From a virus (Duplodnaviria; Heunggongvirae; Uroviricota; Caudoviricetes): a stretch of 19,912 nt of DNA. The notes beneath the pieces were generated by a model. That model did no database searches. It was not told the origin of the DNA and was given only the letters and a program-made list of their open reading frames with translations. The stretch lies in IMG/VR virus record IMGVR_UViG_2744054627_000004, one strand, 5' to 3'. Shown here in pieces: positions 3,409 through 7,494 of the stretch. Every line of letters begins with the position of its first letter. Position 1 is the stretch's first letter. Made by a program: the position numbers and the translations under genes.

Positions 3409-3679
3409 GTATTCGTATTGAAATTGGCGAACGTTATGTCGTTACCAGTGACAGCTTCCAGTTTATTCTCCACGAGAAAAGAGAGCGGAAAGCGGTAAAA
3501 ACGCCGGTCAGGAATGGCTGGCGGTGGTTGGTTATTACCCGAAATTAAGCCAGCTCGTTTCCGGCCTGATGCATCACGATATTCTGACCGGAAGCGCAAA
3601 GTCTTTTGCTGATTTAAACGCGCAGGTTGAGCAACTCAGCAAGCGTTGTTCAGAGGCTTTTGGCTCATATGGCCGTTAA
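3405..3679 (+). CDS. Hypothetical protein (position of P2 orf83), apparent A-run frameshift
   Basis: ATGA-coupled start at 3405 (MSIRIEIGERYVVTSDSFQFILHEKRERKAVK...). The frame breaks at the A5 run in GTAAAAACG and continues QEWLAVVGYYPKLSQLVSGLMHHDILTGSAKSFADLNAQVEQLSKRCSEAFGSYGR to a stop at 3677-3679. Confidence 0.55.
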
Positions 3680-5934
3680 AGCCTCCGGGCGTTTTGTCCC
3701 TCCGTCAGCATTTGCTGCAGGCACCGGTAAGGCGTTTACCGGTGCTTATGCATGGAACGCGCCACGCGAGGCTGTCGGGCGCGAAAGACCCCTTACACGT
3801 GACGAGATGCGTCAGGTGCAAGGTGTTTTATCCACGATTAACCGCCTGCCTTACTTTTTGCGCTCGCTGTTTACGTCACGCTATGACTACATCCGGCGCA
3901 ATAAAAGCCCGGTGCACGGGTTTTATTTCCTCACATCCACTTTTCAGCGTCGTTTATGGCCGCGCATTGAGCGTGTGAATCAGCGCCATGAAATGAACAC
4001 CGACGCGTCGATGCTGTTTCTGGCTGAGCGTGACCACTATGCGCGCCTGCCGGGAATGAATGACAAGGAGCTGAAAAAGTTTGCTGCCCGTATCTCATCG
4101 CAGCTTTTCATGATGTATGAGGAACTCAGCGATGCCTGGGTGGATGCGCATGGCGAAAAAGAATCGCTGTTTACGGATGAGGCGCAGGCTCACCTCTATG
4201 GTCATGTTGCTGGCGCTGCACGTGCTTTCAATATTTCCCCTCTCTACTGGAAAAATACCGTAAAGGACAGATGACCACGAGGCAGGCATATTCTGCCATT
4301 GCCCGTCTGTTTAACGATGAGTGGTGGATTAGTCAGCTTAAAGGCCAGCGTATGCGCTGGCATGAGGCGTTACTGATTGCTGTCGGGGAGGTCAATAAAG
4401 ACCGTTCTCCTTATGCCAGTAAACATGCCATTCGTGATGTGCGTGCACGCCGCCAGGCAAATCTGGAATTTCTTAAATCGTGTGATCTCGAAAACAGGGA
4501 AACAGGCGAGCGCATCGACCTTATCAGTAAGGTGATGGGCAGTATTTCTAATCCTGAAATTCGCCGGATGGAGCTGATGAACACCATTGCCGGTATTGAG
4601 CGTTACGCCGCCGCAGAAGGTGATGTGGGGATGTTTATCACGCTGACCGCGCCGTCAAAGTATCACCCGACACGTCAGGTTGGAAAAGGCGAAAGTAAAA
4701 CCGTCCAGCTAAATCACGGCTGGAACGATGAGGCATTTAATCCAAAGGATGCGCAGCGTTATCTCTGCCGTATCTGGAGCCTGATGCGCACGGCATTCAA
4801 GGATAATGATTTACAGGTCTACGGTTTGCGAGTCGTCGAGCCACACCACGACGGAACGCCGCACTGGCATATGATGCTTTTTTGTAATCCACGCCAGCGT
4901 AACCAGATTATCGAAATCATGCGTCGCTACGCGCTCAAAGAGGATGGCGACGAAAGAGGAGCTGCGCGAAACCGTTTTCAGGCAAAACATCTTAATCGGG
5001 GCGGTGCTGCGGGGTATATCGCGAAATACATCTCAAAAATATCGACGGCTATGCACTGGATGGGCAGCTCGATAACGATACCGGCAGACCGCTGAAAGAC
5101 ACTGCAGCGGCTGTTACCGCATGGGCGTCAACGTGGCGTATCCCGCAATTTAAAACGGTTGGTCTGCCGACAATGGGGGCTTACCGTGAACTACGCAAAT
5201 TGCCTCGCGGCGTCAGCATTGCTGATGAGTTTGACGAGCGCGTCGAGGCTGCACGCGCCGCTGCAGACAGTGGTGATTTTGCGTTGTATATCAGCGCGCA
5301 GGGCGGGGCAAATGTCCCGCGCGATTGTCAGACTGTCAGGGTCGCCCGTAGCCCGTCGGATGACGTTAACGAGTACGAGGAAGAAGTCGAGAGAGTGGTC
5401 GGCATTTACGCGCCGCATCTCGGCGCGCGTCATATTCATATCACCAGAACCACGGACTGGCGCATTGTGCCGAAAGTGCCGGTCATTGAGCCTTTGACTT
5501 TAAAAAGCGGCATCGCCGCGCCTCGGAGTCCTGTCAATAACTGTGGAAAGCTTACCGACGGTGATACTTCGTTACCGGCTCCCACACCTTCTGAGCACGC
5601 CGCAGCAGTGCTTAATCTGGTTGATGACGGTGTTATCGAATGGAATGAGCCAGAGGTCGTGAGGGCGCTCAGAGGTGCATTAAAACACGAACTGAGAACA
5701 CCAAATCGTCAGCAGAGAAACGGAAGCCCGTTAAAACCACATGAAATAGCGCCATCGGCCAGACTGACCCGGTCGGAACGAACGCAAATTACCCGTATCC
5801 GCGTTGACCTTGCTCAGAACGGTATCAGGCCGCAGCGATGGGAGCTTGAGGCGCTGGCGCGTGGGGCAACAGTAAATTATGACGGGAAAAAATTCACGTA
5901 TCCGGTCACTGATGAGTGGCCGGGATTCATATAA
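3669..5934 (+). CDS. A: Replication initiation endonuclease A (rolling-circle HUH nickase), two apparent A-run frameshifts
   Basis: Three listed ORFs (3627..4274, 4271..5095, 5173..5934) in three frames join into one protein of about 755 aa. HUH motif PHWHMMLF and tyrosine pair YIAKYISK are present. Breaks are at A5 runs 4251-4255 and 5047-5051. Likely start is MAVKASGRF at 3669. Confidence 0.88.
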
Positions 5935-6212
5935 ACTGAAATGAACAGCGTTGCAAGTGTGATAAAAATCATTATACTGTTTTTATATACAGCACCTTGA
6001 TCTGGAAAGATGCTATAAATGTATATTTCTATAAAAATATATGGTTTATTGATTGTGTATGCTCACTATCAAATTTATACTCCGCGCGCAATGTTGAGTA
6101 TGCTTAAGATATAGCGTTTACAATTCCAGGCTTGAAGGCTCGGGTATAGGTAAAAATTGAGTGTTCTCGGTTGCTTTTCGTGACATAAGAGGACAGCAAA
6201 GGAGGTTGAGTA

Positions 6213-6682
6213 TGTACAGCCCATTGAACATCGCGAATAAGTTTATAGAACTTGCTTGCGCGGCTGGTATGCCAATCACCCAGATGCAGGCACAAAAGCT
6301 GACCTATATAGCACATGGTATAAATCTGGGTTACAAAGGGACGCCTTTGTTAACGACACCAGTTTGTGCATGGCGTTATGGTCCAGTGGTTCCAGTTCTG
6401 TATAACCATCTTAAAGTTTATGGCCGTAGTCCCATAACACAACCAATACAAGTTCCATCGGCAATTTCTCAGGAGTTTGACCCTATGACTGAGCAGTTGC
6501 TGCAGAACGTTTATAACGTTTACGGTAAATATACCGCTGAGGATTTATCTGCTTTCACACATCGTGAAGGTACTCCTTGGAAGCAAGCAATGGATAGTCG
6601 TATGGATATCATTCCTGATTCCGTTATTCAGGATTACTATCAAAAGCTGCTACACGGCGATAGCAATTGCATCGGACTATGA
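6213..6682 (+). CDS. Panacea-domain (DUF4065 / GepA / PanA-like) protein, putative antitoxin-type component
   Basis: 156-aa ORF with strong RBS AAGGAGG 6 nt upstream of the ATG at 6213 (listed ORF starts earlier, at 6161, in the same frame). Signature KLTYIAHG...AWRYGPVVPVLY...YG...THREGTPW resembles what I recall of DUF4065; not checked by HMM. Confidence 0.6.
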
Positions 6683-6696
6683 GTCCGAATTAAGAT

Positions 6697-6722
6697 AACC
6701 CCGTCTATGTACGGGGTTTTTT
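6697..6722 (+). terminator. Intrinsic terminator between the Panacea-like gene and the next ORF
   Basis: Stem ACCCCGT (6698-6704) / ACGGGGT (6711-6717), loop CTATGT, then a T6 tract (6717-6722) that runs directly into the ATG at 6723. Confidence 0.6.
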
Positions 6723-7106
6723 ATGCCTGACGATAATAAGAAAGTGACAGCTGAATTTGATAAAGACCTTCTCAGACGATTGCAGCAAGCTGAGCAGAAT
6801 CTGATAACTGCCTCTGCGGCTTTGGGAGATGAGGGCTGTTGGGATGAAGAATCTCATGAGCCTGAGTCTGTTGAGGACGCTGTTGATGAAATGCAAAAGG
6901 AAGAAGAGGATGCTGCGACCATGCAGCGTTTGGATTTATCCAGTCTTAATTTTCAAATTGCTGAATTGAGTCGCTGTGTTGAAACTATAAGCACTAACCT
7001 TGAAAGCGTACAGGCAGAAACCAAAAGAAAAATGCGGAAACCGACGGCCTGCTTACGGACAATGAGCTCCGTAGAACTATGGCTGATAAAACATATCAAT
7101 TCATGA
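6723..7106 (+). CDS. Acidic, coiled-coil-like hypothetical protein (127 aa as read)
   Basis: Listed ORF; very D/E-rich central segment (DEGCWDEESHEPESVEDAVDEMQKEEEDAATMQ). The 3' end may be frameshifted into the downstream TM ORF at the A5 run 7029-7033. Confidence 0.5.
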   Translation: MPDDNKKVTAEFDKDLLRRLQQAEQNLITASAALGDEGCWDEESHEPESVEDAVDEMQKEEEDAATMQRLDLSSLNFQIAELSRCVETISTNLESVQAETKRKMRKPTACLRTMSSVELWLIKHINS

Positions 7107-7165
7107 TTGTTTGGTGTTGTTTTGTCGGCTGGGTCATATTTATGTATGTATTGAAAAAGATTTGA
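7103..7165 (+). CDS. Tiny hydrophobic single-TM peptide (20 aa; 28 aa if started at ATG 7079)
   Basis: Manual translation MIVWCCFVGWVIFMYVLKKI; ATGA overlap with the stop of the 127-aa ORF; not in the ORF track because under 60 aa. Confidence 0.35.
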   Translation: MIVWCCFVGWVIFMYVLKKI

Positions 7166-7193
7166 TCCACCAGAAACAATTATCATTGCGCTT

Positions 7194-7292
7194 ATGGGAA
7201 CCACAACTGTGAGTATTGTGGGATTGGTTGGGTTTGTTGTTAGTGGTTTGTTCAAAAGCAACAATAAACCTTCTGGCGACAATAAAAATTAA
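7194..7292 (+). CDS. Tiny hydrophobic single-TM peptide (32 aa)
   Basis: Manual translation MGTTTVSIVGLVGFVVSGLFKSNNKPSGDNKN. The same frame is open upstream (KRFDPPETIIIAL...), so it may be the second TM helix of one frameshifted two-TM protein. Confidence 0.3.
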   Translation: MGTTTVSIVGLVGFVVSGLFKSNNKPSGDNKN

Positions 7293-7300
7293 TCATCAAA

Positions 7301-7327
7301 GTGGCACCTTTGGGTGCTATTTTTTTG
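7301..7327 (+). terminator. Intrinsic terminator closing the cargo module
   Basis: Stem GGCACC (7303-7308) / GGTGCT (7313-7318), loop TTTG, followed by ATTTTTTT. Confidence 0.6.
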
Positions 7328-7477
7328 CTTTTTCCGCGATTTCACTGTTTTTTCCGTGCATCATGTGATGCATGAGTTTGAATGTGCTTTAGTCGAGCTC
7401 ACTTGCTTTCTGCTGCCAATGCTAGCTAGGTTTGACGGTGTTCATGCAACTGCATTAAACCGACCATGAAGCGGGCG

Positions 7478-7494
7478 GGCGAGGCGGAAAGCAC
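7478..7494. other. cos: cos site (cohesive-end sequence) of the P2-like phage
   Basis: GGCGAGGCGGAAAGCAC matches my recollection of the P2 19-nt cohesive end GGCGAGGCGGGGAAAGCAC except for a shorter G run; it sits between the cargo and Q as in P2 prophages. Confidence 0.65.

Follow-up and report, generated by a model that had tools for sequence, protein, structure and literature searches.

A Probable panT Membrane-Toxin Gene Split by Homopolymer Under-Calls Beside a Panacea Antitoxin Gene in a P2-Like Prophage

The Locus and Its Reading Frames

The IMG/VR virus record IMGVR_UViG_2744054627_000004 (Caudoviricetes) comprises 19,912 nucleotides (nt), the whole stretch analyzed here and hereafter termed the window, in which an intact gene encoding a Panacea-type antitoxin, panA, is followed at 6723-7292 by three open reading frames (ORFs), one acidic and two hydrophobic. 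These ORFs were noticed in an earlier sequence-only reading and are present at the positions it gave. Its suspicion that they are pieces of one frameshifted membrane effector was borne out by reference genomes, which encode at this place one protein with an acidic coiled-coil domain joined to a two-helix hairpin. Based on the available evidence, 6723-7292 is very probably a single gene, panT, artificially broken by three homopolymer under-calls, and its product would be the toxin of a PanAT toxin-antitoxin (TA) module. The genes, the frames as read and the sites at which they are broken are as follows.

6212-6682, + strand: panA, intact gene of a stand-alone Panacea (DUF4065) antitoxin of 156 amino acids (aa), 100% identical to WP_047090264.1 of strain CUVM3
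6723-7106, + strand: acidic ORF, 127 aa, isoelectric point (pI) 4.55, with 27 D/E versus 15 K/R
7079-7165, + strand: hydrophobic ORF, 28 aa, MADKTYQFMIVWCCFVGWVIFMYVLKKI, read from the sequence
7194-7292, + strand: hydrophobic ORF, 32 aa, read from the sequence
7028-7032, + strand: deletion site 1, A5 in the window versus A6 in the references, shifting the frame after K103
7154-7158, + strand: deletion site 2, A5 in the window versus A6 in the references
7161-7163, + strand: deletion site 3, T3 in the window versus T4 in the references, three bases beyond the second gap
6723-7292, + strand: panT, very probably one gene for a predicted 190-aa membrane toxin with two transmembrane (TM) segments, appearing as three ORFs through three one-base deletions

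A Single Gene in Complete Genomes

A megablast search with window positions 6100-7400 detected the panT locus in 11 of 5,426 complete Escherichia coli genomes, with identities of 99.4-99.7%. In the annotation of strains CUVM3 and 120899 the locus is a single coding sequence (CDS) of 573 nt, placed directly 3' of a gene for a "Panacea domain-containing protein", and its 190-aa product (WP_001112381.1) is named "DUF2975 domain-containing protein". A three-way alignment of the window with these two complete genomes evidenced three one-base gaps as the sole differences within panT, without substitutions, and a single reading frame was recovered after three one-base restorations, giving 573 nt and a translation that corresponds exactly to WP_001112381.1. 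The assignment of 6723-7292 to one panT gene is made because the 11 complete genomes have one CDS at this place and the three restored bases yield this protein. Orthologues down to 62% identity each encode one protein of about 190 aa, and PHROG 26171 covers the PanT protein over its full length (E 1e-135).

Some details of the sequence-only reading were corrected by this comparison. Both junctions do fall at A5 runs, and the position proposed for the second (7154-7158) stands, whereas the first run is located at 7028-7032 and not at 7029-7033, one base off. The second junction had been thought to need the opposite type of indel; instead, two one-base deletions are located there at a distance of three bases, one shortening A6 to A5 and the other T4 to T3, and both belong to the error class seen throughout the window. 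The fusion of about 150 aa ending in KKI, derived by restoring the first A, is only an intermediate on the way to the true protein of 190 aa.

NCBI's public protein set includes the 127-aa product of this contig (P0082), in one cluster with the 190-aa protein, and therefore the artefact has spread into annotation; with the odd split ORFs explained in all probability as an assembly artefact, this product should not be taken at face value. An antisense ORF of 109 aa (6953-7282) is unannotated in both reference records examined.

Homopolymer Under-Calling Across the Window

Compared to strain CUVM3, the window displays 37 single-base deletions over 13.3 kb of alignable sequence, and no lengthened homopolymers were found over the same 13.3 kb. 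Eight insertion calls were obtained, all of them inside two short, substitution-rich and poorly alignable stretches. The number of shortened runs depends on run length, amounting to 2/7203 at length 1, 9/149 at length 4, 8/48 at length 5, 11/23 at length 6 and 2/4 at length >=7, so that the share affected is 0.03% for single bases and reaches 48% for 6-base runs. The panT gene contains two A6 runs and both are shortened in the window. The deletions strike the replication endonuclease gene (gpA), the portal gene, capsid genes, intergenic DNA and a cos-like 19-mer, a pattern which is the signature of homopolymer under-calling and not of selection on one gene, and which looks like a sequencing artefact. 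Examples of deleted positions are 1419, 2394, 4251, 5035, 7885, 7896, 8502, 9760, and 12793. These window-wide deletions put core genes out of frame, gpA and the portal gene among them, and ORF calls anywhere in this contig are therefore unreliable.

The cos-like 19-mer lies 186 bp 3' of the panT stop codon. In the window this site (7478-7494) reads GGCGAGGCGGAAAGCAC, two G's short of GGCGAGGCGGGGAAAGCAC, the latter being presumably like the P2 cos 19-mer; strain CUVM3 has the full G4 run. The missing G's are probably the same artefact and, if they were real, packaging would be affected.

Alternative Readings of the Split Frames

If the frameshifts were genuine, panT would be a decayed pseudogene in this isolate and PanA an orphan antitoxin, which would speak against a functional toxin gene in the contig. 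Toxin genes are frequently inactivated and A6 runs are natural slippage sites; in addition, disrupted alleles of WP_001112381.1 occur in other public assemblies, including one frameshifted at the second A6 run (P0079) and two in which a break inside the first TM segment (TM1) is followed by unrelated sequence (P0076 and P0078), and some of these alleles may represent genuine toxin inactivation. For the window such a decay is unlikely, considering that run-length-dependent deletions of the same kind occur throughout, including in the cos-like 19-mer, that three independent deletions in a 573-nt gene fit the error rate per run (48% of A6/T6 runs), and that panT shows zero substitutions with respect to the references beyond the three gaps.

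Recoding at the A runs, either by programmed ribosomal frameshifting or by transcriptional slippage, would produce a soluble truncated form together with the full membrane form. The first site of the intact gene, A AAA AAT, is formally a X XXY YYZ heptamer, and a weak Rfam match to the DnaX frameshift element spans the first A run (7009-7063). However, this match is below threshold (18.4 bits vs a gathering score of 35, E 0.45) and was judged to be due to chance, being one of only two sub-threshold matches obtained in the Rfam search of the locus (the other was PhrS). Moreover, the window calls for +1-type and not -1 corrections, and the A6 run is absent from the Salmonella orthologue (AGA AAG AAT), as both runs are from other subfamilies. 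Programmed frameshifting was discarded as highly improbable since the A6 run is not kept in orthologues. It is hardly credible, on the other hand, that the frames function as read, giving a soluble acidic protein, which might be an anti-restriction factor or a DNA mimic, together with two tiny one-TM peptides. The three ORFs exist as read, the 127-aa product is carried by NCBI and the N-terminal part is strongly acidic; nevertheless, all 11 complete genomes and every orthologue down to 62% identity contain one protein of about 190 aa, and three independent conserved ORFs were looked for in the homologous loci of accurate genomes and none were found. No separate homologues exist for the 28-aa and 32-aa ORFs, which are equivalent to TM1 and the second TM segment (TM2) of the PanT family, and the acidic part is the region with the lowest conservation in the family. 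The proposal of a separate acidic DNA-mimic protein was rejected, as every accurate genome encodes the acidic part and the TM hairpin in one polypeptide and the acidic part is not conserved.

Architecture of PanT and Its Family

The single panT gene would encode an acidic protein (190 aa, pI 4.40), with a pI of 4.24 and 30 D/E versus 13 K/R in its first 120 residues. A model of PanT was built with AlphaFold2 (AF2) on a 54-sequence alignment (A2), and hydropathy was evaluated by the Kyte-Doolittle method in 19-residue windows with a membrane threshold of 1.6. The model contains a helix at aa 5-35, a low-confidence acidic linker (aa 36-56), a continuous helix (aa 57-145), a turn (aa 146-151, KDFDPP) and a last helix (aa 152-180); the predicted local distance difference test (pLDDT) scores are 80-87 on the last two helices, which form the hairpin, and <50 for aa 34-65. 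The regions distinguished in the protein are listed below.

6723-6923, + strand: variable acidic N-terminal region (aa 1-67), with a predicted helix at aa 5-35 and then a linker (aa 36-56) predicted without regular structure, at low confidence
6936-7010, + strand: predicted coiled-coil heptads (aa 72-96), a/d positions L72, L75, I79, L82, V86, I89, L93, V96
7034-7093, + strand: conserved, predicted cytoplasmic juxtamembrane helix (aa 105-124), with G109, D113, N114, L116, R117, M120, A121 and T124 invariant or nearly so (A2, n = 54)
7097-7153, + strand: predicted TM helix 1 (~aa 126-144), Kyte-Doolittle maximum 2.09, invariant F127, M128, W131, C132 and V135, pLDDT ~85
7173-7253, + strand: predicted TM helix 2 (~aa 152-178), Kyte-Doolittle maximum 2.14, 15 invariant columns between A157 and F178

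The four heptads are clean, with hydrophobic residues at 8/8 a/d positions, and fall within the predicted helix of aa 57-145. The Kyte-Doolittle profile rises above the threshold in two places, at about aa 126-144 and 153-177. An N-in topology with a short periplasmic loop and the C-terminus in is expected for PanT because it lacks a signal peptide and has a large acidic N-terminal part.

Conservation is concentrated in the C-terminal module. The 54-sequence alignment contains 21 invariant columns, all of them within D113-F178, that is, in the juxtamembrane helix, in TM1 and above all in TM2, which is the best-conserved segment of the family (motif ALxGTxTxSIVGLVGFVVSGLF), and identity between subfamilies is lowest in the N-terminal part, at 17-30%. 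A profile search against 1.84 billion representatives retrieved 655 relatives of PanT at E <= 0.001, 77 of them at E <= 1e-10; many are just 110-150 aa long and match only the juxtamembrane helix and the hairpin, with a recurring motif IGLVGF..KGLF.

A Foldseek comparison of the PanT model with the PDB yielded nothing at E <= 0.001, the fold being a long helix plus a hairpin in a moderate-confidence model. Pfam DUF2975 scored 22.1 bits on PanT, below the gathering threshold of 27, and only over the TM hairpin (aa 127-179); it is found at E <= 0.01 in 27/54 family members, and PanT has no match in NCBIfam. The RefSeq name DUF2975 is thus a weak match to a hydrophobic TM hairpin without functional meaning.

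PanA and the Relationship to Validated PanAT Modules

PanA has a Pfam SocA_Panacea domain (PF13274) at aa 28-124, scoring 66.5 bits where the gathering cut-off is 25.7. The upstream sequence could be read for eight family members (E. coli, in two types, Salmonella, Enterobacter, Pantoea, Providencia, and two further contigs, L016 among them), and in each of them the toxin gene is located directly 3' of a Panacea gene of 154-170 aa. In the window 40 nt separate panA from panT. Escherichia, Salmonella, Enterobacter, Pantoea, Providencia and contig L016 likewise have the antitoxin gene first, with spacings of 22-56 nt; in one distant family member the gap is 107 nt. Between subfamilies, the divergence of PanA keeps pace with that of the PanT C-terminal module (42-79% vs 44-78% identity). 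Because of this linkage and parallel divergence, panA and panT can be taken to have moved together as a module.

The PanAT pair of E. coli STEC O31 has been validated (toxin WP_000019185.1, antitoxin WP_000287252.1), and PanA of the window shares 45% identity over its full length with this antitoxin. The STEC O31 toxin is assigned to cluster T3 with the action class "membrane", in A|T order with a 22-nt gap. WP_000019185.1 indiscriminately shuts off transcription, translation and replication labelling together, causes strong depolarisation in the DiSC3(5) assay and allows SYTOX Green entry, read as large-pore formation, and it is neutralised by PanA; the PanA antitoxins tested neutralise without need for ClpXP or Lon, and pull-downs of PanA:PanT complexes have been made for five other pairs (Kurata et al., 2022; PMC8832971). 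In complete genomes WP_000287252.1 is encoded 22 nt 5' of a 182-aa protein, WP_000019186.1 or WP_032209643.1, which are therefore alleles of the validated toxin. PanT (aa 86-180, 95 aa) shares 43% identity with WP_000019186.1 (E 1e-25), and the partnership with the neighbouring Panacea-like gene that the sequence-only reading had in mind is supported by this homology to a validated membrane-disrupting PanT. PanT shows the traits of cluster T3 (homology to the validated toxin, an acidic N-terminus and two TM segments), the grouping being made by homology and not by FlaGs clustering. Judged by its sequence, the PanAT pair of the window is a divergent member of a known and experimentally characterised class, the PanAT modules whose toxin is a T3-like membrane protein, and it occupies a known hotspot. 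The uninformative name "DUF2975 domain-containing protein" can now be tied to a characterised toxin class, the PanT membrane disruptors.

Both the STEC O31 pair and that of the window are prophage-borne and comprise the gene of a stand-alone Panacea antitoxin followed by that of a ~180-190-aa toxin, which has a charged N-terminus and then two C-terminal TM helices. They differ in the first 85 toxin residues, which are unrelated, in the intergenic region (here a 40-nt gap with a terminator-like hairpin, there 22 nt and no hairpin), and in location (here a hotspot of a P2-like phage, there the end of a lambdoid or Stx-type phage). The supplementary table of Kurata et al. (2022) flags the STEC O31 pair as 'NotPhage', and WP_001112381 is absent from the supplement entries available to us. 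The 182-aa toxin type occurs at the left end of phage PhiR47_1 (PV340566.1, 308-1352, locus L023; host ECOR13), where it is annotated PanA/PanT, as well as in a Stx2k phage and in phage 1720a-02, and 79 complete E. coli genomes carry it beside the prophage genes for PrtN and an exonuclease (L003-L009).

In the PanT_D11:PanA pair of Bartonella choladocola (apis), which belongs to cluster T12, a stand-alone Panacea protein directly neutralises a membrane-depolarising toxin, and this PanA was modelled, with mutational support, as touching PanT at its N-terminal region and at the short helix that comes just before the TM segment (Ernits et al., 2023; PMC10440598). The equivalent position in the present family is occupied by the strongly conserved cytoplasmic helix G109-T124, a likeness by position, and since the Bartonella Panacea contacts a helix at the same position, G109-T124 is likely the region contacted by PanA.

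Hairpins and Predicted Control of Expression

Three elements that may control the expression of the panAT operon were recognized.

6199-6205, + strand: strong panA Shine-Dalgarno sequence (AAGGAGG), 6 nt 5' of the ATG, read from the sequence
6697-6722, + strand: terminator-like hairpin AACCCCGT-CTATGT-ACGGGGTT, from a terminator scan (-13.7 kcal/mol, z = -2.6)
7298-7330, + strand: intrinsic-terminator-like hairpin with a T run at the end of the panAT operon, from a terminator scan (-15.1 kcal/mol, z = -4.5)

The GC-rich hairpin at 6697-6722 is placed between the panA stop codon and panT, with six T's that run into the panT ATG, and the sole Shine-Dalgarno-like element of panT is the GGGG in its 3' arm. 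Equivalent hairpins with stems of differing sequence were detected in five subfamilies, at the Enterobacter, Salmonella, Buttiauxella, Pantoea and L016 loci (coordinates in the respective loci: L010, 2975-3000; L020, 2974-3000; L016, 2969-3000; L018, 2969-2991; L022, ~3475-3500). The panA-panT hairpin probably acts by attenuation and by occlusion of the ribosome binding site, keeping toxin output below that of the antitoxin, because it would hide the Shine-Dalgarno element of panT while panA has a strong one. It may thus be a dosage lock on the toxin.

Genomic Setting and Distribution

The panAT pair is located between the gene for a P2-type replication endonuclease (gpA, frameshifted in the window) and the portal gene (gpQ). 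The P2 gpA-gpQ interval is a hotspot of anti-phage cargo that includes old, tin, retrons and a DprA-PRTase system, and Table S5A of the same study lists 'DUF4065 + hypothetical: WP_000287234 + WP_001112381' (Rousset et al., 2022; PMC9122126). The panAT arrangement is therefore already catalogued in the P2 hotspot. With old, tin and the other gpA-gpQ cargo of P2, PanAT has in common the slot next to cos, whose accessory genes protect the lysogen, and it differs in showing no sequence or mechanistic similarity to P2 Old (a nuclease) or Tin.

Relatives are present in the same slot of P2-like prophages of Salmonella, Enterobacter and Pantoea, so that the putative PanT class occupies the P2 defence hotspot in these three genera and in Escherichia. 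In Enterobacter P2-like prophages PanAT shares the gpA-gpQ hotspot with a DinI gene. Besides PanAT, locus L010 contains a gene for a 586-aa reverse transcriptase (RVT_1; 3964-5724), and L011 (793-1488) and L012 contain a gene with only a faint match to MethyltransfD12; the module thus shares its slot with further cargo of defence type. In a Providencia lambdoid prophage PanAT is found in a moron position between the Q antiterminator and the holin gene, and one relative is located between recombinase genes.

At the DNA level the panAT locus had no match in phage genomes, and a protein search of them yielded just the validated 182-aa type, in three lambdoid/Stx-type phages. Plasmids gave no match. 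A scan of GTDB genomes with the family alignment, in which confirmation was by the first sequence only, gave one confirmed locus (Buttiauxella).

Proposed Mechanism and Biological Role

Extrapolating from the validated homologues, it can be hypothesized that PanA and PanT constitute a type II TA module carried as cargo of the P2-like prophage hotspot. PanT would be an inner-membrane toxin whose N-terminal part stays in the cytoplasm and whose long helix would run into TM1, the chain then turning in the periplasm at KDFDPP and crossing back via TM2, which is rich in small residues. PanT would be kept inactive by PanA, bound to its N-terminal part and juxtamembrane region in the cytoplasm; once released, PanT could oligomerise through the coiled coil and the TM hairpin and would then depolarise and permeabilise the inner membrane, bringing transcription, translation and replication to a stop.

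The most likely role of the module, judged from its location only, is an abortive-infection defence of the lysogen against other phages. In a fuller form of this proposal, which is put forward tentatively, Panacea would sense the phage, PanT pores would kill the cell, the acidic N-terminus would tune the trigger or the partner and the hairpin, as a dosage lock, would set the firing threshold. Several observations weigh against the interpretation of the locus as a membrane-toxin module with an anti-phage function. Homology to the validated toxin is confined to the C-terminal half, the N-terminal halves being unrelated, and the overall confidence of the AF2 model is only moderate (pLDDT 63, predicted template modelling score 0.31). 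For the present pair, we infer toxicity, neutralisation, membrane action and anti-phage effect all by homology. Neither the validated E. coli pair nor the Providencia pair, both with gaps of 22-26 nt, has the intergenic hairpin, which is therefore not essential to the module. PADLOC v2 gave no match for PanA and a chance-level match (E 0.05) for PanT, and a literature search found no test of any Panacea/TM-toxin pair against phages.

The main alternative is that PanAT serves mainly in prophage addiction or stabilisation; on a related view PanT might be a lysis or superinfection-exclusion membrane protein, and taken together these roles are conceivable, short of probable. In favour of these roles, stabilisation of mobile elements is the classical function of type II TA modules (PMC8832971), the module is always found on prophages or between recombinases, the Providencia copy is placed between Q antiterminator and holin, the two-TM topology is like that of class II holins, and the pair is unrecognised by PADLOC. 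Against these roles, proven defence genes (old, tin, retrons, DprA-PRTase) are overrepresented in the gpA-gpQ slot of P2, the Enterobacter pair adjoins the RVT_1 gene, P2 has its own lysis cassette elsewhere, and other membrane-depolarising TA toxins, such as RmrT, do give phage defence. What Panacea senses and whether Panacea-guarded toxins are anti-phage were left open by Ernits et al. (2023; PMC10440598), and the abortive-infection proposal makes the present locus a convenient candidate for asking both questions of Panacea-guarded pore toxins.

Resemblance to Other Systems

PanAT shares the fold family of the antitoxin with the type VI TA system SocAB of Caulobacter, in which SocA is a Panacea-domain ClpXP adaptor. 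On PanA the NCBIfam model SocA_antitoxin (NF047745) scored 98.6 bits, below its equivalog cut-off of 190. In contrast to SocB, to which it is unrelated, PanT is a predicted TM protein, and the independence from ClpXP and Lon of the tested PanA antitoxins (PMC8832971) is a further difference from SocAB.

With HokB/TisB, RmrT of the RosmerTA system and class II holins the common trait is an effector that is a hydrophobic helical membrane protein, and homology to these proteins was not detected. PanT is much longer than Hok/TisB, with a predicted coiled-coil stalk, and would be neutralised by a protein (Panacea) and not by an antisense RNA; its gene does not belong to a lysis cassette. Relatives of PanT collapse the membrane potential when they accumulate, with a shut-off of labelling like that of HokB, and RmrT combines a cytoplasmic part with a C-terminal membrane part, as PanT is predicted to do.

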